Shown piece by piece: positions 19,744 to 64,000 of a stretch of 64,000 nt of DNA; position 1 is the first letter of the stretch; every line of letters begins with the position of its first letter. Source of the DNA: Mustelus asterias (lineage: Eukaryota). The stretch lies in contig NC_135810.1 of NCBI RefSeq assembly GCF_964213995.1, positions 54,498,001 to 54,562,000 of the forward strand, read 5' to 3'. A program made the translations under genes and the position numbers. The notes beneath the pieces are model-generated. The model did not search any database and was not told where the DNA came from. It saw only the letters and a program-made list of their open reading frames with translations.

Positions 19744-19869
19744 TTGGAGAGTCCTGAGGATTGGGCATGTGTATCATAAACTTCAGTGCTTGCTTGAAAC
19801 ATGCAGTGCATACATTTCACACAGATCTTTTTAGATCTTTTGAGATTATTGCTTAAAATGCTAAAGGTT

Positions 19870-20155
19870 AAAGTTTATTTATTAGTGTCACAGGTGGGCT
19901 TACATTAACACTGCAATGAAGTTACTATGAAAATTCCCTCGTACCCACACTCAGGTACGCTGAGGGAGAATTTAGCATGGCCAATGTACCTAACCAGCAT
20001 GTCTTTCGGACTGTGGGAGGAAACTGGAGCAACTGGAGGAAACCCACAGAGACACGAGGAGAATGTGCAGACTCCACATGGTCACCCAAGGTGGGAATCG
20101 AACCCGGGTCCATGGCGCTGTGAGGCAGCAGTGCTAACCACTGTGGCACTGCTGC
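19870..20155 (-). mobile_element. HE1-related tRNA-derived SINE
   Basis: Reverse complement of the A/B-box head and body seen at 3738; different 3' tail. Confidence 0.85.
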
Positions 20156-23149: not shown

Positions 23150-24110
23150 CGGGAATGTGTGTGCACTCTGCTCACAGGCAGCAGCTGGTCCCCAGGAGCC
23201 AGCCTACCGGCACTTGCTTCTTTCCCGCGGCGTGTCACCTGGCAACGAGCGTCACACAATAGCGTCGCCTATCCAATAGATAGCGGGGGGGGGGGGGGGG
23301 GGAGATTTTACTTTATTCTTTAAAAATGAGGGCAAAAGTAGAAGCAGAAACACCAGCACGTCTGAAGTACAAAATAAGTAATAGTAATTGTATTTGAAAT
23401 GTTTACTTATTTCCTCCTGTGTGTGAATACTGTTATATTTTCTGGTCTCCCTCCCACACCGCCCCCCCCCCGCCACAAGTGTGGGTAATGAGCTGAGCCA
23501 TTGTGACGAGCAATAGCGTTGGGCAGGCGGTGACGGGGAGCCGGGACCATCCAGTTCAGTGTCGGCGCTGACCTGACACGTTGTGGCTGATTAATTTTTT
23601 GCACTGTATTTTTTTAAAAGAAAGAAAAACAGTTTCGAGGAATCGGTTCGTGTTCCTCATCCTGACTCTCCGTTTCTCGGCTCCAGTTTCTCGGTGACAT
23701 CGAAGTTGAACCGGGAGCTTCGCGTGTGTGCGGGCGCGCGCAGGCGCGTTGGCCGACCTGCCGAGCCGCCATGTTGCAGACTCTGTACGAGAGGTTGGGG
23801 CTGAAAACGGTGACTGAAACTTTGGCGATATGGTGCGGCTACAAACCGCCCCCCCGGTCTCGGTTCGCCATCGTCTACGATTTCATGTACAACTTGCTGT
23901 CGTTCCTGTGGACCACGAACCTGGGCAACATCATCTTGCTGATCGCGATTTTGCTAATAGTCTGGGGCCTCGTGGTCTTGATCATGAAATTCGTGGGCAA
24001 GTTCATCCAACGGTAGAAGGAGGAGAAGAAGAAGAAGAGCTTACTGAAGTTGGTAAAATCGACGACTACATACTATCCGCGCCGCAAGGTACGTGCCCGG
24101 TGTTATCCTG
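23150..24110. promoter_or_regulatory. CpG island / probable promoter and first exon
   Basis: High CpG density in sequence not recognised as repetitive, CCAAT near 23252, long G run near 23285-23302, GC-box-like ccgccc near 23459; contains GCCGCCATG at 23765-23773. Confidence 0.75.
23771..24088 (+). CDS. Probable first coding exon (single transmembrane helix) of the SPATA31/FAM75-like gene; contains in-frame TAG at 24014-24016
   Basis: Perfect Kozak gccgccATG; MLQTLYERL...NIILLIAILLIVWGLVVLIMKFVGKFIQR*KEEKKKKSLLKLVKSTTTYYPRRK, then phase-0 donor AAG|GTACGT at 24088/24089. Linkage to the giant exon is inferred. Confidence 0.65.
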
Positions 24111-32617: not shown

Positions 32618-32706
32618 CGTTATTTTCGTAAAATGCGGAAGAGATTAAAGAAGGCTGAAACGTGGAAAAATCCAATTAATGGGAATGTTGGAATTAATGA
32701 AAATTT
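32618..32706 (+). CDS. Candidate micro-exon 2 of the SPATA31/FAM75-like gene
   Basis: Acceptor tttgtttatttttag|; phase-0 frame RYFRKMRKRLKKAETWKNPINGNVGINEN joins exon 1; donor gtaaag in phase 2 matches the phase of the giant-exon acceptor. Confidence 0.4.
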
Positions 32707-34842
32707 GTAAAGTTTGCAACCAATTTTGGAGATTAAAACATATTAATTGTATAGTTATTGATAATTCTGACATTTCTCTACTCTTTGACTTAGAGTCAAC
32801 TGAAACAGAGCAAGAGCTGGAAATTGACAAATGCGTGCCCTGACGTAAATATAAACGAGGTTTACATCGCATGAAAAAGTAAGTTTTAAATTTCAAAAGA
32901 TGTTCCAGAAAAGCATCAACAAGTACATGCCATTTTTCCTATTCATTTGCTAAAATCAGACATCTCAATGAAACTATAGTAGTTATTTTGGTGACTTCAG
33001 ACAAAGGACAATCACTTTCAGATGTCCATGGAATAATGGTAGCAGAGCAATGATGAATAACTTTCATAGAACACTATGAAGCATATGTAGCTGTCAGGAA
33101 AGCAATATGTTGAGCATCAAAAATATATTGTACCTTCCTCAAGGAATAGTGTTGAAAAAATGATGATAAAGTGCACGTTGTGTGTAATGTTTCTGTTGCT
33201 GGCAGGAGCCAGGTTTTTGTCCAAACTAGCAATATGTGAACAAGAAAGCAAATTTATCAAACTTTTCTCCCTTTCGATTCCTTACTTCAAGGGAAAATTA
33301 ATGAGGATTTAGAACGTATTATTAGTTCAGGAATTAGCATGGTTTGTTAAAGGCACATTGCATTGGCAAATTTTACTAGTTTTTTGAAAAACGAAGTGTG
33401 TATGGATTTTCAGAGGTATTCAGTCAAGTATCTCAAAAGAAGCTTGTCAGAAAAATATAAGTATGTTATATACAAGAGAAAACAAGTGATTAGTTTCGGG
33501 GGTTTTTCAGAGGCTAAGTATTGAGCTTAACTTTAGCTAATACAAAGACTCGCAACACAGTATCCTGGCGAAGGAAGTTTCTTTATTGACCAACGCAAGC
33601 TGGGAAAAGAAGGGTTGGGCAGTCCAACTCTTCTCTGAAGTTACATCACAGCGGCAGTACAATTATACAACTTCCAAAAGACATTTTACTCGCCTTCTGG
33701 CTCATCATCATTAATACAGATCAGTCATGATTAGTAAATGTCATATACCTTGGCCAATCACAGTTATTCTCTGACAGCATGGAAACAATAGGTTCTAGCG
33801 GTTTCTGCCTGACTTTCCCATGGCCACCTTCCTGGATTCTTCTCTGGCTTATTCATTAGCTGTCTGGAATCAGTAGTCTGTCCTTGTTCAATGAATATCT
33901 CATTCACTGAGCTGTCTGGTACCCATGCTGATAAGGGCTATGCTTCTATGGGTGTATTGTTATCAGGAATGTGGTTCACTTTACTGGCCTATTTCCCACA
34001 ATGCCTTCGAACCCAGTGCCTTTAGCCAAGATCCATGCCTGTTCAATAATACTTTCAAAAATACATGTTTGAATTATCTAACTGTGGTTATATGTGTTAC
34101 TATGCAGACAGTACCTCTGTAACATATATATGAAGCAGTCTGTGATTCTTATCTTAAGTTAATCCACTCTGTTCTAATAGTCTTTATTGGTGTTTTAAAT
34201 CCCAGAATAATTTGAAGTCCTCCAATAATGAGAAAGTTAGTTCACGGACAAGTAATTTAAGGCAAATGAATATTGCTTTGATGAGAGAACATTTGGAATT
34301 GATGTTACAGGGAACAGTGCTGGCTCTACTTGTATTTTTGTTGTAGATAAATGATTTTGATTTGGTCAAAAAGGACATAATTTTGAAATTTGTTGATACA
34401 AAAACAAAGGATGTAACAAATCGCAAGAGGAACTATATAGATTTCAGAATGACAGCAATTTAGCTACTTGTTTTCAGCCACTCTGATCTCTGTTAAATAG
34501 GAATTGGTGCGATAATGGATGAACCAGACACAAGACAGGATAAAACCCCTGGGCCGATGGATTCTATCCCCACACATTAAGAGAGGTTGGGGCAGAGTTA
34601 AGGAAGAGCTAGCAGAAGCACTATTAAATATCATTAGAAGATGGAATAGTGCCATAAGTTTAACAGTTAACGTGATGCCTAGATTTGAAAACTTGTTTAA
34701 GAACAAGTTCAGGGAACAATAGGCCAAATAGGTTAACTTCAGCAGTAAGAAATATAATGGAAACCTTATCAAAGATGGTGATATAGTAGTAATCCGGAGG
34801 CCCAGGCTAATGCGCTGGTGACATGGCGACATATCCCTCCAA

Positions 34843-35838: not shown

Positions 35839-37942
35839 TTTCTTTCGATACCAACCAAATAAACAAACTCAAACTAACTTAGGGACAAATTAAAAGGGGC
35901 AGCTCCCCAAAAAGAAGGGGGAACAGCCCGAACCAAAAACAAAGTCGAAAGGAAACTTAAAACATCAACCCAAAAGGTTATTATCAGGGTCGATAATACA
36001 CCCCAGCCCCTGCGGTGCCCAGCGGTCGCGGAAGGCGTCAACTGCGCCGGTGGACACCGTATGCTCCCTCTCCAGAGACACCTGGCCGCGAATGAGCCGC
36101 GGTAGAGGGGCAGACAGTCAGGATGGACGGGCCCGTTGATCGCTCGCTGCGTGGACCTATTGATGGCGCATCTCGCCAGGCCCAGGAGTAGGTTCACGAG
36201 GAGGTCGGCATCCCGATCCGCCCCTCTCTGCACCAGGTGCCCGTAGATCAGGAGCGTGGTACTGAAGTGTAAACAAAACATCAGTAAAAGTTGTTTGAGG
36301 AAACCAAAAAGGGTGTGCAGTCTCAAACACAGAACATAGACATGGTCCACGGACTCCACAAGGCCACAAAAAGGGCAGTCTTGGGAGCCCGTGAACCAGA
36401 AAAACCTACAGTTGTACAGCACTGCTGCGTGCAGCACCCTCCACCCCAGGTCCCCAAGATAATTGGGGGAGATCCCTCCGTAGAGGGACCTCCACTGGGG
36501 ACCTCCGCCGCTTGGCGGCAACAAGACCCGCCAAGATGTATCCGGGCGACAGGCGAGGACGCGGTAATGAAAGGTGTGCAGCAGCAGCCCGTACAGGAAA
36601 CGCCTCCGCGCGGTGGAAAAGGGCACGGAGGACATTTCCGCGAGGCAGCACATGCAGTGGGGCACCTGACCCGGGGGGGGGAGGTTTAGGCTTTGGACCA
36701 ATGTGAAATTCCGTCCGAGCAGGGAAACGCTTGGGCAGGATCCCACCGCAAGCCTGCGCCGCCTCCAGACCGCGTGCGCACTCAGGGCCGAGCACGACCG
36801 TCTTAAGGTCTTGGATGGCTTTGGCCGCGCGCCAGACGGCCACCCCCGCGCGCTCAGCCAGCATGTGGGGGCTCATCCAGCCCGATCCTCCGCCATCCAG
36901 CACGTCCCCGATCCTGGTCACCCCGCCGACCGCGGCCCTCCTCTCCGCCAGCCACCTGAAGTTGTAAGGCTGGAGGTGCGAATTCCTGAGCAACGGCTCT
37001 CGCACAAGAGCCGCTACTCCTGACGGAGGAGAGCTGCGTCGCGAGGCGACCGCGTTCCAGACCGTAAGGAGGTCCTGGTAAAAGACGGGCAACTCCCGCA
37101 AGGAGGTCGGAATACGCCCCAGGTTGATATGCAGGAGCTGCACGTCGTAGTTGAGGCCATGCAACTGGCGGAAAAAATACGTCGCCATCGTGGAGGAGGC
37201 TCGACGTAAAGGTATCTCTGCAGGGTCTGGAGGGGGAAGGTCGCTACCTATGTGCGGAGGCACACCAGACCTTGTCCGCCCTCCTCAAGCGGGAGATGCA
37301 GAAGCTCGGCAGAGACCCAGTGCAGTCGGTTGTCCCAGAAGAACCGCACGACGGCTTACTGCATTTCGGTGACAAAGCCAGGGGGAGGGGTCAAAGTGAC
37401 CAGCCAGTGCCACAGCATGGAGGCGACCAGCTGGTTTATGACGAGAACTCGTGCCCTGTAGGACAGCACTCGGAGCAGTCCTGTCCAGCGACCCAGGCGG
37501 GCGGAGACTTTGGCCTCCAGCTCCTGCCAGTTCGCCGGCCAGGATTCCTCGGCTGGGCAGAGATGGACCCCCAGGTAGAGGAGGTTGGTCCTGCTCCAGG
37601 TGAAAGGCCTGAGCTCCTCCGGAAGGGGGTCCGTCTCCCACGGACCAACCAGGAGTCCGGAGCACTTGGCCCAGTTGATCCTGGCAGAGGACGCGGCGGA
37701 GTACACCACCTGGCATTCTCGCATCCTCCGCAGGTCAGCCGGGTCCGTGAACATGAGGAGCACGTCATCGGCGTAGGCCGACAGGACCACCCCTACGTCC
37801 GGGCCGCGCAGAGTCAAACCCAACAACCTCCTCCGCAAGAGGCGCAGGAATGGCACCACGCACACAGAATAAAGTTGGTCGGACAGGGGGCAGCCTTGCC
37901 GTACTCCTCTCCCAAAGCGAAGGGGCGAGGACTCATCAGGTA
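35839..37942 (-). mobile_element. Tx1-clade L1 retrotransposon, 5'-truncated
   Basis: RGVRQGCPLS, SAYADDV, YLGV, LSYRARVLVINQLVASMLW, C-terminal DLGWRVLH...CPFCGLVESVDHVYVLC zinc motif; GC-rich; 3' UTR ends in gaaagaaa. Confidence 0.92.
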
Positions 37943-37990
37943 GTTCATACTCGAGCAAGCCAACCTCATTACCCTGGCTGAAGTCATCAC

Positions 37991-38820
37991 AGCTACCTCA
38001 CCCTGGATCCCATGAGGTTTAACCTTATGCAACAACCTACCGTGCGGTACCTTGTCAAAGGCCTTGCTAAAGTTCATGTAGACAACATCAACTGCACTGC
38101 CCTCCCCTCATCCACCTTGGTTACCTCTTCAAAAAACTCAATCAAATTTGTGAGACATGATTTTCCACTCACAAAGCCATGCTGACTGTCCCTAATCTCT
38201 CAATGCCTATAGATCCTGTCTCTCAGAATACCTTCCAACAACTTACTCACTACAGGTGTGAGGCTCACCAGCCTGTAGTTCCCAGGCATTTCCCTGCAGC
38301 GCTTTTTAAACAAAGGCACGACATTTACCACCCTGCAATCTTCAGGCACCTCACCTGTGGCTGTCAATGATTCAAATATCTCTGCTCGGGGACCCGCAAT
38401 TTCCTCCCGAGCCTCCCACAACGTCCTGGAATACACTTCGTCAGATCCCGGGGATTTATCTACCTTGATGCTCTTTAAGACTTCCAGCGCTTCCTTCTCT
38501 TTATATGTACAGTCCTCAAGACATCATTATTTCCCCAAGTTCCCGAGCATCCACGCCTTTCTCAACAGTAAATAATGATGAGAAATATGCATTTCGGATC
38601 TCACCCATCTCTTGTAGATCTCTACATAGATGACCTTGTTGATCCTTAAGAGGCCCTACTCTCTCCCTTATTACTCTTTTGCCCTTTATGTATCTGTAAA
38701 ATCTCTATTTGGATTCTCCTTTGCCTTATCTGCCAAAGCAATCATGTCCCCTTTTTGCCCTCCTGATTTCTTTCTTAACTCTACTTGTACACCCTCTATG
38801 CTCTTCAAGTGATCCACTTG
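37991..38820 (-). mobile_element. CR1 ORF2 fragment
   Basis: RTLWEAREEIAG...VPEDCRVVNVVPLFKK...NYRLVSLT, MNFSKAFDKVPHGRL. Confidence 0.88.
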
Positions 38821-44725: not shown

Positions 44726-47679
44726 AGTGGGAATTCTGTTCACAAACAGGGCATATAAAGACACAAACTCAATTTACATGAATAATGGTTGGAATGCAAA
44801 TACTTACAGCTAATCAAGTCTTTGAGATACAAACAATGTGATGTGAGTGGAGAGAGCATCAAGAGAGGCTAAAGAGATGTGTATTGCCTCCAGACAGGAC
44901 AGCCAGTGAGACTCTGTAGGTCCAGGCAAGCTGTGGGGGTTACAAATAGTGTGACATGAACCCAATATCCCGGTTGAGGCCGTCCTCATGTGTGTGGAAC
45001 TTGGCTATCAGTTTCTGTTCAGCGACTCTGCGCCATCGTGTGTCGTGAAGGCCGCCTTAGAGAACGCTTACCTGAATATCAGAGGCCGAATGCCCATGAC
45101 CGCTGAAGTGCTCCCCAACAGGAAGAGAACAGTCTTGCCTGGTGATTGTCGAGCGGTGTTCATTCATCCGTTGTCGCAGCGTCTGCATGGTTTCACCAAT
45201 GTACCATGCCTCGGGACATCCTTTCCTGCAGTGTATCAGGTAGACAACGTTGGCCGAGTTGCAAGACTATGTACCGTGTACCTGGTGGATGGTGTTCTCA
45301 CGTGAGATGATGGCACCTGTGTCGATGATCCGGCACGTCTTGCAGAGGTTGCTGTGGCAGGGTTGTGTGGTGTCGTGGTCACTGTTCTCCTGAAGGCTGG
45401 GTAGTTTGCTGCGGACAATGGTCTGTTTGAGGTTGTGCAGTTGTTTGAAGGCAAGAAGTGGGGGTGTGGGGATGGCCTTGGCGAGATATTCGTCTTCATC
45501 AATGACATGTTGAAGGCTCCAGAGGAGATGCCGTAGCTTCTCTGCTCCGGGGAAGTACTGGAAGGCGAAGGGTACTCTGTCCACCGTGTCCCGTGTTTGT
45601 TTTCTGAGGAGGTCAGTGCGGTTTTCCGCTGTGGCGCGTCGGAACTGTCGAATGATGAGTCGAGCTCCATATCCTGTTCTTATGAGGGCATCTTTCAGCG
45701 TCTGGAGGTGTCTGTTGCGATCCTCCTCATCCGAGCAGATCCTGTGTATACAGATGGCTTCTTTAACGTGTTTAGGGTGGAAGTTGGAGAAGTGGAGCAT
45801 CGTGAGGTTATCCGTGGGCTTGCGGTATAGTGAGGTGCTGAGGTGACCGTCCTTAATGGAGATGCGTGTGTCCAAGAATGCAACCGATTCCGGAGAGTAG
45901 TCCATGGTGAGTCTGATGGTGGGATGGAATTTCATTATATCGTTGTTTCGGTGATTGTTCACCACGAGTCCCAAGGAAGAAAATGTCATCGATGTATCTA
46001 GTGTATGGCATCGGTTGAAGGTCCTGTGCGGTGAAGAAGTCTTGTTTGAACCTGTGCATGAAGATGTTGGCATATTGAGGTGCGAATTTGGTCCCCATGG
46101 CTGTTCCGTGTGTCTGGATGACGAACTGGTTGTTGAAGGTGAAGATATTGTGGTCCAGGATGAAGCGGATGAGTTGTAAAATTGCATCTGGAAACTGGCA
46201 GTTGTCGGCGCTGAGCACTGAGGCCGTTGCAGCAATGCCATCGTCGTGGGGGATGCTGTTGTAGAGTGCCGAGACATCCATTGTGACGAGGAGCGCTCCT
46301 GGTTCAACTGCTCCATGTGTGCCAAGTTTCTGTAGGAAGTCCGTAGTGTCGCGACAAAAGCTGGGGGTTCTTTGTACAATGGGTTTCGGGATGCCCTCGA
46401 CATAGCGGGAGAGGTTCTCGCACAGGATCCCATTGCCCGATACGATGGGACGGCCGGGTGTGTTTGCCTTGTGTATGTTCGGGAGGCAGTAGAGATCTCC
46501 AATGCAGGGAGTACGTGGGATGAGAGCACGGAGGGTGCTCTGAAGGTCCGGATCAAAGGTCTTGATCAGAGTGTTGAGTTGACGGGTGTGTTCTTTGGTC
46601 GGATCGGCGGGTAACTGTCTGTCGTGTTCCTCGTTGTTTCGTTGTCGGTACACTTCTTTGCAGTCATCCGTTCTGTTCAGTATGATGATGGCCCCTCCTT
46701 TGCTGGTTTGATAATGTTGCGGTTGGTCTTGAGAGCGTGGATGGCGTTGCGTTGTACTTGGGTGATGTTCGGGGCTGTCTTGTGAGTGCGGCTGATGAAT
46801 TTGGTGTTGCCGCACCTCCTGATGGCTTGGGCATACATGTCAAGTCGAGGGCAGCGGCCTTCCGGAGGAGTCCAATTCGACTCTTTCCTCTTCGGATGCA
46901 CTGCGGATCTCTCTGTCGGCTGTTCCGGTTCATTGTCTGTCTCATTGTGTTTGCTGTTGTCCTCTTGGGGTTTGTGGAAGAACTCCCGCAGCCTCATTCG
47001 CCTGATGAATTCCTGTGTCTGCTGCGAGACTGATGTGGTCTATTTTGGTGGTGGGGCAAAAATTAAGCCTTCGGCTGAGAACTTTGATTTCATCTGGTTG
47101 AAGTGTGTAGTCAGACAAGTTGACAATGGACTTCCCTGCAGTGGTACTGTTTTCTACTGTGGTACCGGGGGAGGCTTGGTTGCTGCTGGTGGTGATGCCG
47201 AGTTTCTCAAGTTTCCTGTTCTTGGTGTGCATGTAGATGGTGTAGTTCCTTTGTCTAGTCTGCTTGGCAGAGTTTCGCAGCTGGGCTGCATCCTGAGCGC
47301 AAGTTGAGAATGTGGACTCTATCTTGGTTTCCAGGCTGCGGCGTTTACTGTTGAGCTGGTGTACGAGGTGTTTGAGGAGTGTTTGAGAGAGGTGCGACGG
47401 CAAAGTCTCTCAGCGTAGTCTGTTATAGTTTGACCTGAGTGGGTTCGTGATCTGTAGTCCTTTCGGTATCTTGTCTGATTTCTTGCATCTTTGTAGAAAC
47501 TTGATGTCTGTGTCGATATGCGCGATCTTCTTGGAGATCCTCTCCACTTGGAGGTGGCAGTTTGCGGTGTCGATGGTAGTCATGATGTGGAGATGCCGGC
47601 GTTGGACTGGGGTAAACACAGTAAGAAGTTTAACAACATCAGGTTAAAGTCCGACAGGTTTATTTGGTAGCAAAAGAAA

Positions 47680-48890: not shown

Positions 48891-49921
48891 CCAGCTTCCG
48901 AGTAACCCGAGATCCCATTGTAATTGTAATGAACATTTCAGCCACCTGAACTCATCAATACCATATGTCCCATGTAGACCTCACCCCTCCCAATCTTGAG
49001 GATCTGTACACTATCATATACCGAGGACAACGCGCCACACACACACACACAAAGTTTGACTACTCCTCTATCATGTTTTCCTGATTTACAAGCTCCCCTA
49101 ACCGTACCATCTGCAACTCAGTACTGAGCCAGACAAGCCTATGGCCACTGATGGTAAGACCATGTTCATGCCCTGCATACTAAGCCGTACCTTATCCAAA
49201 TTGAGCACTTAAACTTTGTCCCTCCCTGGGATAGTACAGTAATGTACATGTCTTGCATAGTGCTGTAGCCTGGTCCTGGAAGCCTCAAGACTGTCTTTAA
49301 CATCTCACCGAATGTGAGGTCGACTCAGCCCAACAACTGTTTTTCATTTCTCACCTTGATCCCCTCGCCCTGACTGGTGATTATGACTTTCTTTAAAGGA
49401 GCTCTCCACTTCCTCTTTATACTCTCCCAGCCCCCACCTCCATTTGTCACTGTGCGATCTATCTCACCAGCCGCAGCAAACCTTGTATCGACCAATCTAA
49501 TTTCTCACTAAGGTGATGCAAGATTAGAAGGTGGAACCAGCAAATAGACTTATATTGAGTATTCATGACATGGTAATGTACCCAAATGGCATTCCTGTCA
49601 TGGATCAGTGGGAAACCCAACTCGCCATTTGTCTACCATGAATGTGGTGAGGGGAAAATTCCAAATTAATTTCCTGCCAGAAATCTGATTTTCGGCTTCT
49701 CTCTGTATTTTCTGCTCCTGCCCACCATGAAACCCGCCACAGGCAGGACCAGAAAATTCAGCCCTATGAAACAGAGTGACAATCTACTAAATCTTGTACT
49801 TGTTCTTTAAAATGTACATTTGTGAGAAGTTGCCTGTATAACATTGTTCTGTTAATATATATTGATGAGATCATTTGAATTATTTTTAATGTGTTGACTT
49901 GTATGTATTGCAACTAAACAG

Positions 49922-52900
49922 AAAACAACGTAATGCAAGAGAAGAATTTGACAAGTCAAAGTTTGAAGAAGGTGAAGGAGCACTAAATGAAAAAGCATTA
50001 CATCAAAGCTCCAATGAGATACCTTTACGTGATCATCATCGCCATTGCGGCAAGGATACATCCCTTCATTCATTTGGCTCAGTCACATCTGAAAAATTAA
50101 ATTACAAAAAGTCCAGCTCAGTTTCTGATACCTCTTCTCTTAACAGTGCTTTAAACGGTGGTGGAAAGAGCTGTATCGCCTCATCAGACTTGAAACAAAA
50201 ATGCTCAGAACAGAATTTGTTCGAAAACTACACCTCGATTGGAACAAACACATCTGACCAGTTCTCTTCTGAAGAAATATGGAGGATGACTCTGAGCATT
50301 ACATGGCGAAGTACTGATGAGCAGTGCACAGTTACTAGTAATACTGTGTATGAAACCTTGAGTGAAATAGAAACATCAGGATGCATGCCATCCTACTGTC
50401 CAACATCCCCACCAGGCCAGACCTTGCTTGCCTCCACAGCAATAATTGACAAAATAAAAAGCGTGCCAGTACAGAATGATTTTATAAACAATAATTACAC
50501 TAATGGTCTTCATGTAACAGTCTTCCCAGACTCAGAGACAAAACAGATGGAATCATTAGAAGTTTCTAACTTAAAGAACCAGCTACCTTTGCCTGAAATT
50601 TACCATTTGGGAGAACATGAAAAATATGCATTGGCAAGCAATACTAATTTTCATGTTTATCCACGCATTCAGAAAGTTGCTTTGCTGACCAAAGAAAATG
50701 TTGAAAAATTTGAGTTACTTCAGCTCAGAAGAAAACTTCATTCTGTTTCAACACCAGTTACTGAAGAGTTGGAAATTGACAAAAAAATTCAGGGAGTGAA
50801 TGGAGAAGTTCAGCAAATGGAAAATGCGAATGATCAACCAATACCTTCAGTTCCTCCAAGCTTACCTAATAACCGGGTTGGTACTCTTGAGCTGAATGTT
50901 GCTCAGATGGCATTAGAAGGTCAGTGGGGATTGCCATTTATGCATAAGAAGTCACTTTCACTGATACTGCTTCCACTGTTATCCTTACCTAAGAAATCAT
51001 GCATTGAACTCATCGGAAAGGATTTGAAAATGCCAGCCCTTCTGGAACCTGACATTTATGACTTGGAATTTAATTTGCAAAGGAGGATTGGAATTCATCA
51101 GTGGAGACCAATATTAATCAAGGGGGTTAACCTCATAGATTCTGTTAATGTGAACATAATGAAGTCACTTTCAGAAACATTCAATGAAAGCCATGTATTG
51201 ATTATTCCACCAGTCTCCATTTTTAGCACTAAGACATTGGTTAATTTAAAACCTCAATCTCTTGATAAGAAACAGGCTCCACCATCTGTGACCCAAGCAA
51301 TGGATTCTAAACAAATTAATTGTTTTGATGAGATCAAAACAGACAGAGCTGAATTTAGAACACAACAAAAAGCAAGTAACAGCCATTCATCAATTCAGGT
51401 TAGTAAATCTTGCAGCACTGACATAGCCATGCCGATAGAGAAGGTTCAGAACATTACAAATGAATCTGAAATGTACGTTGCTGAGGAACAGTTTGAAATT
51501 CCATCTGATATTCAAGAATCAGTCAGCAGTGTTCACCCAAATGAAATACCTTTAATTAACTTTACTCCTCTTGATAGAAGAAGTCAGAGGCCAAGGCCGC
51601 GATGTGTATCATTTATTGAGCAAGCTGCTGTTGATTGCTTGGAGATGAAATTAAAGCAAAGACTTATTTCCCATCTCTGGCAATATCCAATTTCCTTTGA
51701 AAATTCAGTGAGAAAGGTGACTCCTAAAGAAACATTCACAACCAAGGCAAATGATGCCCAAATAAAGCCAGTTCGTGTGGAATCAGTTTTCATTGATGAC
51801 AAAACAAGGGACAGTCTTGAATGGCATGTTACACAGGGACAGCTCAAACACAACTGGGATTTATCCACAGATTTCCAGAAGCCAGCAGAAGCATCCCTTT
51901 CTTCAGTTAATTTGATTTCTTCACCGCTAAGTCTAATTGATACGGTTACTACCACCGAATTACCATTCGTAACTCCAGAACATAAAAAAATTGAAAGAAA
52001 TGTGAATAGAAGAATTACAAGTAATAGGTGGAGTTCCTCCAGGTTTGTCCAGCAAACCTTAAATGGTTATAACGTTCCTGCACCACTACAATCAAAAAGC
52101 ACTGATAGAAATAATTCAGTGTTCAATAACACTGATATATCATATTCTTCTAAAATCATTCCCTATCAGGAAAACATGCTTCAGAATGAAAGCAAAAGCA
52201 TGCTTCTGTCACTTGAACGTAATCGTAGGAATGGAGAAACAAAAAAATTAAAAGAGGGATTTGCTGTTACCAGCTTCAGGCCAGAATATGAAAATAAATT
52301 AATTATGTGCTTAACAAAACAAAAGGTTGAAATGAAGCTAAATTGTTTACCAAATCCGGTATTGGAATCGTATAATGATTCCTATTTTCTAACGTCAAAG
52401 AAACGTTTACCAGTATTGATTAGAGTTGGAAAAGGATATAAAAAGTCAAGGCCATTGTATATATCTTTTATGGAACATGATGCCGTTGCTCGATTGGAGG
52501 TCAACTTAAGCCAAAAGCTTATTTCAAGTTTGTTGGGATTCCCAACTTCATATGAAAAGTCCTTGGAAATAATGATCCCTAAAGCACCACCATTACCTCC
52601 ACAACTTAAGACACGTGCAACTAAAATAGAACCCACCAGTACAGAAACTACTTTCCTTGAAGATAAGGTCAGAAACTATCTGGAAAGGCACGTTATACAG
52701 ATAAAACTTCAGTTTAATTGGGGTCTACCAACAGAAATTCAGAGATCAAGAGATGCACTCATTCCACCTGCACCAAAATTGATTTCTTCCCAGCTAAATC
52801 CACTGCCTTGTTCACAGTTAGCTGTTGTCCTAACTGAACTGACAGTTATAAGTGATAATCATAAGAAAATGTTGGACTCCAATATGAAGAAAAAGATTAT

Positions 52901-55900
52901 TAATAATAGACGGGGTCTCCTTCCCAATGTTGTGCAGAGATCGTCAATTAATTTCATGGATTTTAGTTTAATAAAAGATCTCATTGCCCATTCAGACATT
53001 ATAAAAAGAAAAGCAATGTCTGTCAGCAGTGAACATCGTAAGGAGATACTGCAATACAGCCCAAAATTGCCATTTCTAAAGAATAAAAGTAGGAGGAAAA
53101 ACATAGATCTCAAGAAGATAGAACTTAAAGAAGTGTTCATGTGCATAGCAAAACAATGTTTAGCCATTAAAATGGATTATCTTCCTAATATAGTAAAAGA
53201 GATGTACAAAGTCACATATCCTTTAGAATCAAGAAAAGATTTACCAAAATTAATTACATTTGGCAAAGGTAATAAGAAACTACGGCCATGTTATATACCT
53301 TTTTTTGAGCAGGAGGCAGTCGATCGCTTGGAGCTGAACCTAAAGCACAAACGGATTTGCCATCTCTGGGGGCTTGAGACATTACATGCAAAGTCATTAC
53401 GGATGATGATTTCTAAGGTACTACCTGTTCCTCCAGTAATCAAGGCAACTGACGCTACAATACTACCTACGGCTGTAAAGACTTCTTTTATTACTAATAA
53501 AGCCAGGTTGATTTTAGAGTGGCACCTTACACAAAAAAAACTTGGAAGTAACGGGAGTTTTCCGTTACATATTCAAAGATCACAAGAAGCATTCATTCCA
53601 CCTGCTCCAAAACTAATTAATTCACAGATCAACCCATGTCCTAATTTTGATGTGAATGTTGTTACAATTGATCCTGCATTTCTCGACGTTGAAAATAAGA
53701 AACGAATGGAACTGAATGTAAAAAAACGGATCATAAATCATCATTGGGGTCTCCCGAAGCTTGTTCATTTGTCTTTAGAGAGTTTTATGTCTCATGCACC
53801 ATCAGTAAAGGGTATCAAGTCACAGTCAGAAATATCAGAAGAAAGTGAGGTTTTGTTAAAGAGTAAGTTTAAAACAAGTTGTTTGCAAAGCAAGTTGATA
53901 CAACCCAAGAGAGAAAAAACGTCTGCACCATTCTGTGACCAAGCTATCAAATTAATGAAAGTGAAGAGAAAACCAATGTTATCTGTGATTGCTACCCTGG
54001 AATCGCAGCATAAAGATCAGTTAGATACGTGTTTAATAAAACAATGTCTCGAAATAAAACTGGACAATTTACCAGCAATTGTACAAGAATGCTACAAAAA
54101 TACATACCCCCCAACACCAAAAAAAACTTTAACAAAATCTTTTCCACCTGGTGAAGGTTGTAAGAAAACAAGGCCACGGTATATACCATTTTTTGAACAG
54201 AATGCTGTTGATCACTTGGAAATGAATTTGAAGATCAAACACATTTCCTACCTATGGGGATTTCAAACTCCACATGAAGAGTCAATAGAAATGATGATTC
54301 CCAAAGCTCCATCTGCACTTCCAGCACTCAAAGCAAATCGAGGCCAATCCATGGGAACCACTTGTATTAGCAAAGAAGTCAGAGATAAATTTGAATGGCA
54401 TGTTACTCGAAAGAAACTTCAACACAATTGGGGCAAGCCATCATATTATCAGAAGTCAGTAGAAGCATTCATTCCAGTTGCTCCAAAGTTGGTTCCATCT
54501 CGGCTGAGCCCAAAAGCTGATTCTGTTTTGGTCATTACTCTATGTGAGTTGCCATTTGTAGATGTTGAAATTAATAAAATGTTGGAGCTGAACACCAGAA
54601 AAAAAATCATCAATCAAAGGTGGGGTCTTCCTAATTTTTTTCAGTCATCTTTAAGAAAATTTGTTGCTTCTGCACCATCAATGAATGATATTATGGAGTC
54701 AAAAAACATGGCAAGAAAGAAACCAAAAGCCAATAACATTGAAATAGAGAATAATGAAATGAGCTTTCAACAGAAAATGTTTGTACAACCACAAAGCGAA
54801 AAGACGTTCTCAGTACAATACAGAGCAGGTAAAAGGAATTCAAAAACAGCTAAATTAGGTGAGCAGTTTGTCTTTGCTCATCTGAAACAAAAAGTTAAAA
54901 ATAAACTGGATGTATGCTTGATGAAGCAATGTCTAGAAATGCGCATGGACTGCTTGCCAGAAAGAGTGAAGCAGTTTTATAAAGTCACCTATTATCCGAC
55001 CTCAAAGACATCATTACCACAGCTAATTGTACCCAGAAATGGATTCAAAAAGCCAAGAGCAATGTATATATCTTTTATGGAACAGGATGTTATCGATCAC
55101 TTAGAACTTAATTTAAAACACAAACAGATGACCAATTCTTTGGGACTTGCAACTCTGTATGAGGAATCAGTGGAAATGATGATTCCTAAAGCACCACCTA
55201 TGCCACCACCTTTCAAGATGAATGGAGCTCAAATAGAGCCTGTGGGCGTGGAAATTAATTTCTCCAATGATAAAGTTCGAAAAGACCTTGAAAGGCATAT
55301 TACACAGAAAAAGCTTCAGCAAAAGGGGGGTTTACCACTACATATTCAGAGATCACAAGAAGCTTTAATTCCACCTGCTCCAAAACTAATATTATCTGAG
55401 TTAAATCCCCAGCCTAATTTTGTGACTGTCTTTGCCCCGCCTGAGCCAACATTCCTTCACAATGAACATAAAAAAAGACTGGAGTTCAATCTAATGAAGA
55501 GAGCTGTAAATCAGAAATTAGGCCTACCCAAGCTCATTATGTCATCTTTAAGTAATTTTATGGCTCCTGCTCCATCAGTGAAGGACTTCATGCTACAAAC
55601 TGAAATAATTAAAGACAAGAAAAAATTGAGCAACACTCCCATTGAAAAGGTAAAGAGTGATCTGTTTCCTCGAGGCATATTTCCACTGCGCATTCAAAGA
55701 AAGATTTTGTTGCCACAATCTAAAAGAAGTAGTAATAACAAGACATCAAACAAAATAGATGATTTTGCTGGTCTGAAACCAGCACAGAAAGATAAACTAT
55801 GTATATGCTTAACAAAGCAAAGCCTACAAATCAAAATGCACAGTGTTCCAGAACTCGTAAAACGTTTGTACAAAGATACCTATCCTGTGCAATTAAAGAA

Positions 55901-58900
55901 ATGTCTTCCAAGGCTAATTACACCTGGTGAAGGATTCAAAAAGCCAAGATCGTTGTATATATCTTTTATCGAACAGGAGTCTGTTGATCGTTTAGAATTC
56001 AACTTCAAGCACAAACAGATTATTCATCTCTGGGCACAGGACACACTGTATGAAAAGTCAGTCAAAATGCTGTTTGCTAAAGGACCAAATGTGTCGCCAA
56101 TACGTAAATCAAATGGAGTTCAAATTGTAACTGTAGGTATGGAAACATCTTTCATTAACAATGATGCTAGAGACAAAATGGAATGGCATATTACGAGAAA
56201 AAAACTAGAGAATAATTGGGGCTTTCCATTACATATTCAGAAATCAATGGATACATTTATTCCATCGGCTCCGAAATTGGTTTCCTCTGAGCTAAAGCCA
56301 CATTGTATTCATGATATAATTGTGACATCAACTGAACCACTTATTATAAGTGCTGAAGATGGAAATAGATTGGAAATGAATACAAAGAAAAAGATCATAA
56401 ATCAAAAATGGGGTCTCCCAAATCTTATTCAGACATCCTTGAAGGACTTAATTACTCCAACGCCATCACTACAAAGTGACACATTACAGTCAGGAAGCAT
56501 AAAAGGAAGTAAAACATTCACTCACAATGTCATAGATCTTAATTCAAAAATTACTGCAGGGCACAAGAAGGAAAAGTTCCCTTCACTGCTTTGCCAGAAA
56601 GTTTATAAAAGAGCAAAGTTTAAGAAGATAAGTGCATTCCCAGATTCTTCCAATCTCAAATCAGAATGTAAAGATAAACTAAATATGTGTTTATTAAAGC
56701 AAACTCTTGATATTAAAACACATAATTTACCTGACATTGTACAGGGATTTTATGAACGTACGTACCCTACAGCAGCAAAAAAAGAATTACCAAAACTTAT
56801 TGTTTCCAATGAAGGTTGCAAAAAACAAAGACCATGGTGCCCACCATTTATTGAACAAGATGTTATTGATCATTTAGAGCTGAACTTAAAGCACAAGCAG
56901 ATTATCCACCTTTGGAGACTTGAAACTGTATATGATAAATCAATCAAAATGATGATTCCGAAAGGACCACCTATGCCTCCTGCAATCAAAGCAAGTGAAA
57001 CTAAAGTAGAACCTGTGGGTATGGAAAACACTTTCATTGAATATGATGTTAGGAGCAGAATAGAATGGCACATTACACAGCAGAAACTTCAACAGAACTG
57101 GGGCTTACCGTTGCATATTCAATTGTCAGCAGAAACCTTTATTCCCCCTGCTCCAAAACTGATTCCATCCCATCTATATCTACAGTTTAGCTTTGAAGTA
57201 ATTGTTGCTCCAACTGAAATGACATTTCTAAGTAAAGGACTTAGGAAATTATTAGAACTTAATACAAAGAAGAAGATAATAAATCACAAATGGGGTCTTC
57301 CAATACTTATTCAGTCTTCATTAAGAAAGTTCATAGCCCTTTCTACATCAAGAAAAGATTTAGTGTTACAGTCAGGAATAGTCGAAGCCAACAAAACAGA
57401 ACCCAGCAATATTGATAGAAGAAGTAGGATGAGAATTCCTTCGCAAATGCACAAAAGTAAAGATGGTAGCAAAGACACAACACCGAGCAAAACAGCTGAA
57501 GTGGCCATTTTGTTCAACTTCAAACAAGAGTATACAGATAAACTTAATATGTGCTTTGGAAAAATGTGTCTAGAAATTAACATGCATTGTTTACCAGAAA
57601 TAGTAAAAGAATCTTATTAAAAAAATTATCCTTCCATGTCAAAGAAGCTATTAAGGAAGATTATTGCACCTGGTGATGTATATAAAAAGCCACGTTCATT
57701 ATATATAGCGTTTATTGAGCAGAGTGCAGTTGATCGTTTGGAGCTGAACCGAAAGCATAAACGCATTTGCTATCTCTGGGGACTTGTAACCCTAAATGAT
57801 AAATCATTGGAAATGATGATCGCTGAAGTGCCACCTATGCCTCCAGCAATCGAGTCAAGTGGAGCTAAAATAGAACAAGTGGGTAGGGAAACAACATTCA
57901 TTGATCGCAAAGTGAGAGACAACTTTGAAAGATATGTTATGCAGAAAAAACTCCAGAAAACCTGGGGATTACCATTAGATGTTCAGATATCAGAAGAAGC
58001 ATTTATTCCACTTGCTCCAAAGCTAATCCCATCCCAGTTAAAACAAGAGCCTGCTTTTTCAGTCGTAGTTATTTCACCCGAGCTGCCATTTCTTCGTAAT
58101 GAGCATAAGAAAATATTGGAGATGAATACAAAGAAAAAGATGATCAATTACAGATGGGGTCTTCCTAATCTTATCCAATCCTCTTTGAATAAGTTTATAA
58201 CTACTGTTCCAGATGCATGCTGCAACATTAATGTGGGCAATAAAGAAAACAAAATGTTTCTTCACAACACGTTGACAGCAATCAGAAGGGGGAAATCATC
58301 AGCGCTACAATATGAAAAGAATAACAAAAGCAAGAAAACTAAAAAAATGGATGAGAAATTTTCACTTGCGAACTTCAAACCAGAATTGAAAGACAAACTT
58401 GAAATTTGTTTAACAAAGCTGTCTCTAGAGATTAAGACCGGGTGCTTACCTAAAATGTTAAAGGAATTTTATAAAAATAGCTATCCTTCGCAATCGAGGC
58501 AATCTTTGCCAAAGCTCATAGCACTTGGTAAAGGACTAAAAAAGCCAAGACTGCATTGTTTACCATTTATTGAACAGAATGCTGTTAATCACTTGGAGAT
58601 GAATTTAAAGCACAAACTGATTACCCATCTATGTAAATTTCCAAATCTTTATCAAGAATCAATTGAAATAATGATGTCTAAAGGTCCATCTGAACCTCTA
58701 ATCATCAAGAGAAGTACAGCTCTAGTATACCCTGTTGGTAAAGAAACAAGGTTCGTTGATGATAAAGTTAGAGACAGACTGGAATGGCACATTACACAGA
58801 AGAAACTTCAAAATGGTAATTGGGGATTACCATTACTTATTCAGAAATCACAAGAAACATTTATTCCACCGGCTCCAAAGCTAATTCCTTCGGAGCTAAA

Positions 58901-61900
58901 ACCACCGCCTGGTTTTCCTTTGGTTTTTGTTTCACCTGAAATGGTTTTCTTAATCTCAGAACATAGAAAAAGACTTGAGCTGAATACAAGAAAAAGAATC
59001 CTAAATTACAAGTGGGGCCTCCCCAGTGCTATTCAATCGTCTTTAAGTAATTTCCTAGCTTCTCCTATGCTGCAATCTGAAGTGTTGGAAAAAGGCAAAA
59101 TATCTTCCAGCAATAGTCAAATGGAAGATGTACAAGTAGATGCCTCAATTAACACATTTTTACAGACGAAGAAAATAAAACTGTCTTCAAAACAGAGTCA
59201 GAAATATAGCAGTAATCTGAAACCTTGCAATGTAGAAGAGATACGGCTTTCCCCTATACTCAACCAAGAAAGTAAGAACAAGGTAGAAATATGTTTGATA
59301 AAACAGTGCCTTGAAATTAAAAATAGTGGTCTTCCAGAAATAGTGAATGAGATGTATAAAGCCACCTACCCTTCAATGTCAAAAAAGCCTTTTTCAAAAC
59401 CAGTTGCCCCTGGCAAAAGATTTAGAAAGCCAAGATTGTCATACATATCTTTTATTGAACAGGATGCTGTTAATCATTTAGAACTGAACTTAAAGCACAA
59501 ATTGCTTACCCATCTCTGGGGATATGCAACCCAATATGAACAATCGATAGCAATTATGATTCCAAAAGTACCATCGGAGCCTCCAGTGATCAAAGCAAAT
59601 GGAGTCCAAATAGAATTTGTGGGTCAGGAAACAACCTTCATTGACAATAAAACTAAGGACTTAATAGAATGGCACATAACACAGAAGAAACTTCAGCACA
59701 ACTGGGATTTTCCACTCCATGTTCGAAGATCACAAGAAAACTTTATTCCACCTGCCCCAAAATTAATTCCATCACAGTTAAAACAAGAGGTTTTTTTGGT
59801 GAAGATCTGTGTGCCGGTTGAACGGCCCTTCCTTAGTAATGGACACCGGAAAATACTAGAAAGGAATACAAGAAAAAGAATTATAAGTTGCACATGCGAC
59901 ATTCCGAAGATCATTCAGTTATCTGTAAAGAATTTTATACCTGTTGTCCCAAAAACAGAAGATTTAATTCTACAGCCACAAGATGCGGCAATGCCCATTT
60001 TCATTGTGCCTACTTCAGACAGTATTATCCAATTAAGAAAATTGCCTTTATCAAAGTATCAAAAAAGCACAGAAGTGGAAAAAAATATCGAGGTATTTTC
60101 TTCTGATAATCACGGCGTTACATGTAGAGGTTCTATAGATTTCTGCTTAATAAAGCAGTGTTTAGAAATTAAAACAGAGCACCTACCTGAACTGGTAATG
60201 AATACCTACAGTGCTCTCAATGCTCAGACATCAAAGAAGATTTTGCCTAAACCTATTTTACCTGGCATAGGTTTTAAAAAACAAAGATCAACATATATGC
60301 CTTTTATTGAACAAAAAGCAATTGATCGTTTGGAATTGAATTTAATGCACAAACAGATTACACATCAGTGGGGATTTCCAACTCCCTATAAAGGACCATT
60401 GGAAATGATGATTCCAGTGGTACCAGCATTGCCTCCAATAATCAAAGCCAGTGGAGCTCAAATAGAGCCTGTGGGTATGGAAAACAACTTCCTTTACAAG
60501 AAAATAAGAGACAAGCTCAAACTGCACATAACACAGAAGAAACTTCAGTACAATTGGGGCTTACCTTTGCACATTCAAAGATCGCTAGAAGTCTTAATTC
60601 CACCTGCTCCAAAACTTATTCTAACCCAGTTAAATTCCCAGCTTGATAGTGCAATAGCTGTTGCTCCTTTTGAACCGGCATTTGTTACTGACGAACATAG
60701 GCAAACCCTGAATCAAAATATAAAGAAAAGGATCATAAATCAAAATTGGGGTCTTCCAAAAGTTATTAACTCATCTTTAAAGCAGTTTATGGGTCCTACT
60801 CCATATGATGAAAGCTTCGTCCAACAATCAGAAAATGTTAAAGAAAGCAGCACAGTATTCAATAGTGCCAATTTGGGTAGAAGTTATGAAATATTTTCTC
60901 GGGGCACAACCTTGCGACTGAAAGGAGGAAAATTAGGTTCACAATTTGGAACAGACGAAATGCACATAAATAAAGTGAAAGAGATAGCTGCCAATGTTAT
61001 CCTTAGATTAAAGTCTGACAAAAACCTTGATATGAGTGTGCTAAGGCAGTGTCTGGAAATTAAAACTGAATGCTTGCCTAAACTGGTAGAAGAGTTCTAC
61101 AAATGTACCTATCCTTCAGTGTCAAAGAAATCTTTACCAAAGCTTATTGCACCTGGGAAGGGAATTAAAAAATCAAGAATCAAGTATATACCTTTTACTG
61201 AACAAGATGATATTGATCAGATAGAAATGAACTTGAAGCACAGGCAACTTTTATATCTCTGGGGACTTGAAACACAGTATGAAAAGTCAGTAGAAATGAT
61301 GATTCCCAAGGGACCACCCATTCCTCCATCAATTAAGGCTAGTAGATTTCAAATTAAATCTGTACCTGGACAAACTTCTTTTTCTGATGAAACCAGCAAC
61401 TTTCTAGAATGGCATATTTTGCAGAAAAAGCTTCAGTGTCCTTGGGGTTTCCCATCACATGTTCAAAGATCAGCAGAAGCATTTATTCCACCTGCTCCGA
61501 AGCTGATTTTAGCCCGGCTCAATCCAGGGTTTCATGTTGAAATAGTTATTGTTCCAATCGAGTTAGAATTCATGAATGATCAGCTGAAAAAGGCACTAGA
61601 AGTTAATATAAAGAAAAGGATTGTAAATCACGTATGGGGCATTCCCAGGCTTGTTGAGGCATCTTTAAATGAATTTATGGCACCTCCTCCACCTATAAGG
61701 GATTTTGTAGAACAATTTAAAATTAAAAAACAGCATAGAATGAAGTCCAGAAAGAAAGGCTTATCAAATGCTGATAAAACAGTTTCTTCTTCGTGCACAT
61801 CTCTTCTGAACAAAGAACAAAATAATACTTCATACTATGGAAGTTTGAAGGGAAGTGTCCAAATGAAAAAGAGAGAAAGGAGGAAGTCTACTCTTACTGA

Positions 61901-63986
61901 ACTTGTACCAGAATGTAGTAATAAGTTAAATATGTGTGTGATAAAACAAAGTCTATCTATTAAACTGGATTGTCTTCCTGAACTGGTGAAGGAATTGTAC
62001 AAACAAAGTTATCCTCCAGCATTGAAGAAATCATTACCAAAGCTGAGAACACATGTTGAAGGATTTAAGAGAACAAGATTACCATATATTCTGTTTGCTG
62101 AACAGGATATCATTCATCACTTAGGTACAAACTTAAAGCACAAACAGATTAATAACCTTTGGGGCATTGCAACTACATTTGACAAGTCAGTAGAAATGAT
62201 GATTCCTAAAGCACCATCTTTGCTTCCAGCAATCAAACCAAGTGAAGCTAAAATAGAGCACATAGGTATGGAATTAGCCTTTCAGTCTACTGAAACCATT
62301 GAAATCCTGGAATGGCACATCACAGCAAAAAGATTTCAATCCCATTGGGGCATACCATTGCATATCCAAAGATCAATAGACAAGTTCATTCCATCACCTC
62401 CAAAACTGGTTCTGTCCCAATTTAGCCAGTATCTTGATATTGATATTGCTGTTTCTGTAAATGAGCTAATATTCCTGAGTGAGGAATTTAAGGAAGCATT
62501 GGAAATAAATACAAACAACCGGATCATAAATCACAGACAGGGTCTTCCCAATATTATCCAGGCCTCATTTAAGAGCTTTATAACTCCTTTTCCATCAGTA
62601 AAGGATTTCATGCCACTGGTACAGACTGGAGAAGGAAGTACAAGAGCACTGAATAGATCTGAACTGAGCAAAATTGATACAGATGTATCTGCTAAACAGA
62701 GGTTATGTGCAAGCACAGTTTCTTCACCAAATTGTAAAGATGGTAAAGGCAGTGTAAATAGCATGGAAACATTTCCAGTCAATCCAAACTTGGAACCTAA
62801 AGATGAAGTGGATACAGATATGACAAAGCAATCTTTGGAACTGCAATCAGTGCACAGATGTTCTTACACAAGTAAACGTTTGCTGAAGCTAAATACCCCT
62901 TATAGAAGATTCAAAAAACAAAACCGAAAGAGTAAATGGAGTGATGATTGTCTTGAATTAGAGTGTTCCATAGCCTCACCCAGTTATAGGCCAAAATGCA
63001 TGAAAACTGTGGGCTCTTCAACTTGGACAACAGATCCGAAATTGGCTGATTTGACATATAAACCAGTGACTATTGTGGGACTGTCTTTAGGTCCAACAAT
63101 GATGGGAGCAAATGCACCTTTATCCCCCATGACTGTGCAGGAGGATTTCAACATTTATCTGAAACAAAACATGGGTTCCGTTTTATTGCCACGTCTCATT
63201 CCTTCTGCTGATTGTGAAGAAACCTCATCGAAAAGTGCAAGAGAGATTGGGAATGATGTGTCCTGTTCAGAACAATTGACTGAGGAAGCAAAAAGTCATA
63301 TTCAACAAGGTGAAGAACATGGATATGTTAAAATAATTGCAGGAGCTATTGTTAAAAATCAGAATGAAGAAGAAAAGGTGCAAGTTGATCTATCGGAAAT
63401 AATTTGTGCACAGCGATCACCTACAAGACCTTGTGACACCTTGCAAGAGAGAATAATGATTACATCTCAAGATCCTGATGATGGAAACTACTTGTGTGTT
63501 TCTGATGAGGAAGTCTATGATGATTATTATGAAAACTTCAATAAATCATACCATACTTCCAGAACCCATGTTGCGAAGAAAAAGTCCAAGAAAACTTTTC
63601 AAAGTCGGTATTCAAATCAAACAAAGCCAGATAAAACTTTGGTGAATTCAAAGAGTAAATTTTCCAAGCCAGACTGTCAGAGATCAAGAATATTTAAACA
63701 TGAAGAAGGGAGAAAACCTGAGTTATGTAACCAAAGCACTCTTTTTGTTAGCCCAACTGAAGAACTGTGTTGGTCAGACACAGACCAAAAGGAGAAATGT
63801 TCCTCTTACTCCTCATATTGTGACCAACCAGAAAGTCCAATGTCAACAAGAGAAATTTCTCACAGTTGTAGACATGATGAAAGGTCCCCACAAAGTTCCA
63901 CATCTCATAATCCAGGATGTCAGCAAGTATTGTCGCATGAGGATTCTCCATTTGCAACAAATGAAGACTGTGAAGGTACAGTGTAA
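49922..63986 (+). CDS. Giant (~14 kb) coding exon: tandem SPATA31/FAM75-like repeat protein, with one in-frame TAA at 57618-57620
   Basis: ORFs 49899-57620 and 57636-63986 share a frame (about 4695 codons together). Repeated LEWHITQKKLQxNWGLPLHIQRSQEAFIPPAPKL and KKxLExNxKKRIINxxWGLPxxIQxSL resemble recalled SPATA31/FAM75 motifs. The ORF-track start is a TTG; the likely entry is acceptor aaacag| at 49921/49922. Confidence 0.85.
52290..62610 (+). repeat. Coding tandem array of 12 diverged ~870-890-bp units
   Basis: CLxKQxLEIK motif recurs near 52307, 53141, 54030, 54915, 55806, 56688, 57552, 58406, 59292, 60143, 61038 and 61934; a degenerate unit lies at ~51580-52090. Confidence 0.9.
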
Positions 63987-64000
63987 GATGATGTTTTTGT

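Follow-up and report, generated by a model that had tools for sequence, protein, structure and literature searches.

The window analysed here is a stretch of 64,000 nucleotides from the shark Mustelus asterias (NCBI RefSeq assembly GCF_964213995.1, contig NC_135810.1, positions 54,498,001 to 54,562,000 of the forward strand). It holds one copy of a gene, predicted to comprise four exons, whose giant last coding exon encodes a tandem array of helical repeats related to the Pfam family FAM75 (PF14650). Similar copies are clustered on the same contig, designated C10 below.

Results

Structure of the window copy

An earlier, sequence-only reading of this DNA had claimed a giant reading frame, free of transposable elements, from 49922 to 63986. 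Both limits are confirmed by the splice acceptor and the final stop (Table 1), and no transposable-element signal emerged, in that 52001-64000 has zero 20-mers in common with unrelated flank loci; 1-20000 is 47-90% covered by such 20-mers. The frame is not single, as had been supposed: frame +3, extending over 4,697 codons from 49890 to 63986, contains one internal TAA (57618-57620), which cuts the exon-4 frame into 2576 and 2121 codons. Exon 4 of this copy is also 12 nucleotides shorter, in frame, than that of intact copies.

Table 1. Features of the gene copy in the window (positions count from the first nucleotide of the window).
Feature	Position	Strand	Basis
Exon 1, coding part, predicted; Kozak ATG, transmembrane helix, basic tail, GT donor at 24089	23771..24088	+	tblastn of sawshark, skate and ray N-termini
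TAG just after the transmembrane helix, codon 82 (AAG in intact copies)	24014..24016	+	TAG in 19/30 exon-1 loci, AAG in 11/30
Exon 2, 64 nucleotides, predicted; donor GG at 32682-32683	32618..32681	+	splice-site scan
Exon 3, 85 nucleotides, predicted	32794..32878	+	tblastn with homologue N-termini
TGA in exon 3	32841..32843	+	TGA in 2/30 loci
Exon 4, giant last coding exon, 14,065 nucleotides	49922..63986	+	AG acceptor 49920-49921, final stop ending 63986
Trace of one helical motif	50868..50972	+	5.5 bits, unit profile
Degenerate unit 0, motifs B-C-D	51573..52091	+	120 bits, unit profile
Array of 12 full A-B-C-D units	52272..62612	+	unit profile
Unit starts	52272, 53106, 53994, 54879, 55773, 56652, 57516, 58371, 59259, 60111, 61002, 61899	+	
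In-frame TAA within unit 7	57618..57620	+	AAA in most copies
Acidic Ser-rich C-terminal region, conserved in sharks	62613..63986	+	75% identical to S. canicula, 50% to skate

Both halves of the frame match Pfam FAM75, with E values of 3.5e-78 and 2e-96 (264 and 324 bits against a gathering cut-off of 24, in 9 and 8 stretches), which places the protein in the FAM75-domain superfamily and strongly supports the SPATA31/FAM75 homology that had been proposed. The 12 full units counted by eye were recovered by the unit profile, and the 'one or two' degenerate ones resolved into one degenerate unit and one trace; the figure of about 290 residues is the period of the repeat, the cores being about 240 residues long. 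Pairwise identity among the 12 full cores is 39-53% (mean 46%). The expected Trp/Pro motifs are present in the exon-4 translation, as are the Ser-rich ends, which are acidic (isoelectric point ~5.9) and flank an array of isoelectric point 9.7.

A membrane anchor and small internal exons had also been anticipated, and exons 1-3 were located, as predictions, within the window; the DUF4599 profile (PF15371) did not find these upstream exons, and tblastn with homologues did. Their phases join to give an intact copy of 4,847 residues in four exons, as computed from splice signals, phases and homologues, the splicing itself being predicted. Exon 1 encodes a single transmembrane helix (roughly residues 54-72; its hydropathy in an intact copy is 3.4), followed by a stretch of net charge +9; exon 4 contains no other hydrophobic segment (maximum 1.49), and the helix is also present in the sawshark, skate, ray and coelacanth homologues. 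Because one transmembrane helix is followed by basic residues, the predicted topology is N-terminus out, with a cytoplasmic tail of ~4,770 residues (about 540 kDa).

The window copy itself is a pseudogene, since it carries four lesions: the TAG after the transmembrane helix, a GG in place of the exon-2 donor, the TGA of exon 3 and the TAA of exon 4. The length of ~4,800 residues that had been estimated is therefore right for intact copies and does not apply to this one. The dead donor is the commoner form (GG in 17 of 30 loci, GT in 13), with GT in all 5 further loci. The exon-4 TAA recurs in 3 other C10 copies (35 aligned), and the base at its site reads A in contigs of sequencing runs X1, X2 and X4, the X3 contig containing no other letter; these contigs, from one study and of unknown kind, indicate presence and not copy number. 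On the evidence of the run contigs and of the other copies with TAA, an assembly error was rejected as the source of the stop, which is a real variant. The C10 copy at 52.43 Mb was dropped as a carrier, its codon reading TTA; the corresponding codon is TAA in four copies and AAA in most. The TAA falls in two separate branches of the copy tree, a hint of gene conversion.

A repeat of four helical motifs

Each unit consists of four motifs, A-B-C-D, ~60 residues apart, of which B, C and D are homologous to one another (hhalign probability 96.7-98.3). Motif profiles, which gave 0 matches in 71,034 residues of reversed control sequence, place 52 motifs in the shark protein in the order (A-B-C-D) x 13. 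The same order occurs in coelacanth, sturgeon, caecilian, turtle and lizards, with ABCD arrays in chimaera as well. A coelacanth paralogue has ABC repeats, and lizards and pigeon have CD repeats; opossum CCDC168 reads aBCdAB and FAM205 D-CD-BA.

An AlphaFold2 model of one unit from a 50-row alignment consists of four motifs, each a long helix that leads through a kink into a short one, with a predicted local distance difference test (pLDDT) of 77 and a predicted template modelling score of 0.23; an earlier model from 12 rows had reached pLDDT 48. The local motifs are thus predicted with confidence and without fixed or globular packing, in the manner of beads on a string. Foldseek gave 0 matches, VIA-align a best Z of 3.6 on single helices, a sequence search of the PDB nothing below E 0.16, and the ESM Atlas one unnamed match at 0.78. 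This absence of structural matches does not show a new fold. Identity to skate is 59% in the cores versus 40% in the linkers.

Relatives and age of the array

A search with an intact copy as query yielded 10 proteins from 3,450 candidates, belonging to catsharks, sawshark, skate (two genes), electric ray, chimaera, coelacanth and two sturgeons, with the best identity, 75% over the region searched, to the S. canicula protein. The unit profile gave 254 cluster representatives at E <=0.001 (150 listed); the 30 relatives named include lizards, snakes, turtles, caecilian, newt, gar, whitefish, smelt, pigeon, mammalian SPATA31D/F and bilby CCDC168. The sequence-only reading had counted any existing annotation of multi-repeat proteins across fishes as evidence against it, and in part such annotation exists: array proteins stand in NCBI and UniRef with PF14650, under automatic names such as 'uncharacterized' or 'SPATA31 domain-containing'.

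In a tree of units from non-mammalian sequences, all 13 shark units cluster by position, each with its counterpart in catshark and in both skate genes. Sawshark has 11 of the 13, the last two units of the series group with chimaera units (support 0.99-1.0), and the coelacanth, sturgeon and reptile units form separate groups. Because the 13 units match by position between sharks and skate, the array is, by the evidence of this tree, older than the shark-ray split. The array is thus no expansion of the shark lineage, as had been thought, and ABCD arrays exist in many bony vertebrates; the jawed-vertebrate age suggested for the family stands, with homologues in chimaera, coelacanth, sturgeon and others.

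Near-identical units also mark independent recent expansions elsewhere: a 169-residue ABC repeat in coelacanth P0163, 18 ABCD units in sturgeon P0011, and 7-8 copies of unit 6 in electric ray P0006. A Pelodiscus protein (P0085), named proline-rich protein 30 (PRR30), bears one full ABCD unit, and a pigeon protein of 4132 residues (P0064) has five spaced CD pairs overlooked by Pfam FAM75. The family may include further named testis genes.

A cluster of inverted copies

With one unit as query (150 matches listed, 766 candidates), the genome yielded at least 42 places at 97-100% identity, 31 on C10 and 11 on 8 small contigs, with 17 of the 42 lying within open frames 4,600 codons or more in length. 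Another 15 places on C10 match earlier units alone. A second, short paralogue was considered for these and rejected, the 4 examined being truncated copies, 98-99% identical. The 46 places on C10 span 50.51-54.92 Mb (4.4 Mb), with a median of 82 kb from one to the next; strand is opposite in 36 of 45 neighbour pairs (p 4e-5), that is, mostly head-to-head. No unit was found in the 94 kb left of the cluster or in 18 samples on its right side, which leave 110 kb between the last copy and TPP2 uncovered. The expansion inside one exon, which had been opposed to gene duplication, was therefore accompanied by it.

Exon 4, which was read in the C10 copies, differs by 0.05-1.4% among 31 long and 4 short ones. 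Six of the 31 long copies show no lesion (50.51, 52.54, 53.40, 53.65, 53.77 and 53.94 Mb), and two unplaced copies look intact. Recent duplication of a palindrome-forming kind, with birth-and-death turnover, is the most likely origin of the ~46 copies, the majority of which are dead. Insertions of 2.8-9.8 kb occur in exon 4 of the copies at 50.64, 51.43, 51.72, 53.57, 54.28, 54.42 and 54.78 Mb; the five inspected hold long retroelement-like frames (706-1327 codons), and some insertion sites are common to several copies.

Among 503 distinct exon-4 substitutions, 346 change an amino acid, 147 are silent and 10 are nonsense, the neutral fractions being 0.705, 0.247 and 0.048. Private nonsense changes number 0 in copies whose upstream signals are intact, where 3.9 are expected, and 6 in stop-class copies, where 8 are expected. 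The exon-4 frame is open in 7/7 copies in which exon 1 and the exon-2 donor are intact versus 5/17 with the exon-1 stop or a dead donor, a contrast with a Fisher p of 0.005 between copies that are not independent, owing to common history.

The introns of the window copy (24089-49921) hold retroelement remnants, with RVT_1 matches at 37359-37997 and 28906-29844. At 45270-46839 lies an unclassified pair of reverse-transcriptase-like frames that is very abundant in the sequencing-run contigs.

Similarity to CCDC168 and gene neighbourhood

The shark unit matches marsupial CCDC168 in 8/8 proteins at 91-117 bits, with two units in each, and a bat protein at 44 bits; 99 shuffled or reversed control sequences reached at most 4.3 bits. 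In the reverse direction, the matches that a CCDC168 profile ranks next are the arrays of coelacanth, caecilian, chimaera and shark (E 1e-17 to 1e-24), and 0/10 mammalian SPATA31/FAM205-type proteins reach E < 20. Pfam FAM75 misses both marsupial CCDC168 proteins scanned. Within the size range of 3850-5000 residues, no longer CCDC168 protein was found.

The genes adjoining the cluster on C10 are TPP2 (55.03 Mb), METTL21C (55.12), ERCC5 (55.24) and a TEX30-family gene (55.40); together with a second METTL21-family gene they lie 0.11-0.48 Mb from the last copy. TPP2, ERCC5 and METTL21C were identified against PDB sequences, TEX30 by family only. TEX30 adjoins CCDC168 in the human gene order. In pig, METTL21C-CCDC168-BIVM-ERCC5 are reported inside 0.15 Mb (PMC12115691), and human data likewise place CCDC168 with these neighbours (PMC6179948). 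Methyltransf_16 (METTL21-like) exons gave 41 matches in the genome, including tandem clusters at C18:23.3-23.8 Mb and C3:4.1-4.6 Mb and near-identical unplaced copies on small contigs.

Discussion

Which mammalian gene is the counterpart?

The order of the motifs and the neighbouring genes make it probable that the shark gene is the counterpart of mammalian CCDC168 rather than of SPATA31 proper. The deep SPATA31 homologue of the sequence-only reading thus remains a member of the FAM75 family, at a locus that matches CCDC168 and not SPATA31/FAM205; DUF4599 reached a best E of 2.3 genome-wide, with none at the cluster, and is absent in the full-length sawshark and coelacanth proteins. It is possible, if doubtful, that the shark gene is instead a co-orthologue of SPATA31, FAM205 and CCDC168 alike, the mammalian family as a whole, its place beside TPP2 being either ancestral or secondary. 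All 108 scored FAM75 matches do fall in the C10 cluster or its unplaced copies, an Anolis ABCD-array protein bears the source name SPATA31F1, and scores to SPATA31D and CCDC168 are alike. Yet CCDC168 keeps the A-B-C-D order that SPATA31/FAM205 have scrambled; the PHF24-family (PF16744) gene, PHF24 being the neighbour of human FAM205A, is on another contig, C6, so that the C10 cluster does not lie beside it; and the 108 were drawn from 40,894 candidates, so other paralogues are possible.

Several findings weigh against the CCDC168 assignment and the reading built on it. Motif A is only weakly similar to B-D. Sequence scores fail to separate the families, the best single domain giving 54-72 bits in marsupial CCDC168 and 69.5 in sloth SPATA31D. 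CCDC168_N (PF15804) was not detected in the shark protein; it is found in the bat protein, and does not define the orthogroup because the two marsupial CCDC168 proteins scanned were also without it. In mammals the gene sits between METTL21C and TEX30; the shark cluster lies instead on the far side (upstream) of TPP2, and 18 samples of 2.2 kb at the expected places contained no unit. Contig C4 holds a second TPP2, near an FGF gene, and from this and the position of the cluster we regard the region as rearranged. The TPP2 loci, C10:55034279-55044920 beside METTL21C/ERCC5 and C4:129202483-129209752 at 0.65 Mb from the FGF gene, suggest that an ancestral block broke apart at a duplicated TPP2 beside the amplicon. 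The ratios of amino-acid to silent changes show no significant departure from neutrality (55:27 in the intact class, p 0.17; 109:51 in the broken class, p 0.10), and because they are not significantly below neutral in either class the selection signal is confined to frame integrity. Finally, function is carried over more than 400 million years from proteins in which no more than 1-6 motifs are left.

A proposed membrane-anchored scaffold and its rivals

Intact copies would encode a single-pass membrane protein with a cytoplasmic tail of 52 predicted helix-kink-helix motifs. Since this is a string of helical motifs in conserved order, multivalent binding along a periodic partner is suggested: the string may be unfolded until bound, and would contact a filament or other periodic partner at many points. 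We lean, with some reserve, towards a spermatid membrane-to-cytoskeleton scaffold, whose tail would link the cytoskeleton to a membrane of the spermatid (acrosome or nucleus) while the sperm head is being shaped. Both spermatid expression and the scaffold role are proposed by analogy with mammalian SPATA31, FAM205A and CCDC168. Mouse Spata31 is reported to bind beta-actin and syntaxin, with infertile knockouts (PMC5338094), and FAM205A to be acrosomal, again with infertile knockouts (PMC13423385); infertility of Spata31 and Fam205a1 knockouts is described in PMC5338094, PMC13423385 and PMC4254261, and expression of CCDC168 in early spermatids in PMC9933954.

The main rival holds that the motifs bind each other, condensing the tail into a dense membrane-anchored matrix, perinuclear-theca-like or subacrosomal. 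The amphipathic, basic motifs, which have no fold of their own, would suit such a material, as would the freedom with which lineages differ in the order and number of their motifs (ABC x n in the coelacanth paralogue, CD x n in lizards and pigeon). We nevertheless think it unlikely, as the 13 diverged units keep their position between sharks and skate, a ruler-like register that fits a matrix less well. Selection might instead have acted on the amplification itself, through dosage, through an 81-residue transmembrane-only peptide from exon-1 stop copies, or through small RNAs from inverted copies, which would modulate or compete with the intact gene as in drive conflicts. The stop does fall exactly after the transmembrane helix and is the commoner form (19/30), neighbouring copies alternate in strand, and their divergence is small. 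Still, breaks build up in the stop class about as fast as neutrality predicts, large exon-4 insertions are present in at least 7 long copies, and the pattern is equally explained if a copy was duplicated when already dead, which leaves this account quite improbable. A non-germline role in fishes, such as tethering membrane to cytoskeleton in somatic cells, would echo the broadened expression of SPATA31A/C reported in primates (PMC5338094), and appears very unlikely given that the papers cited above describe each of mouse Spata31, FAM205A and CCDC168 as a gene of testis or spermatids.

Significance

A sperm-gene family studied almost only in mammals is here dated back to the origin of jawed vertebrates, and the FAM75 'domain' is resolved as a helical repeat of four motifs, which lends itself to expression and testing. 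CCDC168, described as a candidate azoospermia gene of unknown function (PMC9933954), gains a family, a motif and a testable role. The cluster constitutes a multi-megabase palindromic gene amplicon in a shark, none such having been found in literature searches. These searches, of incomplete coverage, also found no description of the fish and reptile arrays, the motif grammar, a CCDC168-SPATA31 link or the copy cluster; PhyRepID notes a different, interspersed motif of 2-6 units in human SPATA31 (10.1101/2020.02.14.947036). As far as these searches go, the motif grammar, the CCDC168 link and the C10 cluster appear to be new; the proteins were already in databases under automatic names. A more sweeping conjecture, to which we give little credence as a whole, would make SPATA31, FAM205 and CCDC168 one family descended from a jawed-vertebrate, membrane-anchored A-B-C-D 'ruler', whose ancestral 13-unit form sharks would keep at the CCDC168 locus; M. 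asterias would have made of it a 4.4-Mb palindromic amplicon where truncated transmembrane-only copies outnumber and regulate the few intact ones, much like the ampliconic testis genes of mammalian sex chromosomes.

Comparison with known systems

The direct homologues are uncharacterized FAM75-array proteins: S. canicula LOC119977343, skate LOC129698331/430, chimaera LOC103177415 and coelacanth LOC106703202, joined under automatic names by proteins of sturgeon, gar, lizards, turtle and caecilian. CCDC168 (source name 'leucine-rich repeat transmembrane protein CCDC168') has the same A-B-C-D order and the neighbours TPP2, METTL21C, ERCC5 and a TEX30-family gene, and, as in the shark, an N-terminal transmembrane helix in 3 of 6 marsupial models tested for hydropathy; it differs in that the marsupial proteins retain about 1.5-2 degenerate units versus 13, and in that the shark gene has been amplified and sits on the opposite side of TPP2. 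SPATA31A-E and FAM205/SPATA31F (PF14650) resemble the shark gene in their FAM75 match, exon-1 transmembrane helix and four exons with the long coding exon last, and SPATA31, like the shark cluster, is reported to have undergone segmental duplication with pseudogene copies (PMC5338094). Unlike the shark protein with its 52 ordered motifs, SPATA31/FAM205 have 3-6 scrambled ones (D-CD-BA); human SPATA31A numbers 5-11 copies in a diploid genome versus about 46 places in the shark, and DUF4599, found in FAM205A and SPATA31D, was not detected in the shark. Nebulin-type filament binders also group short helical motifs in super-repeats, and no sequence or fold similarity between them and the shark unit was found by Foldseek, VIA-align or the PDB sequence search. 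The palindromic ampliconic testis genes of mammalian sex chromosomes, in turn, consist of inverted, near-identical gene copies, as does the shark cluster.

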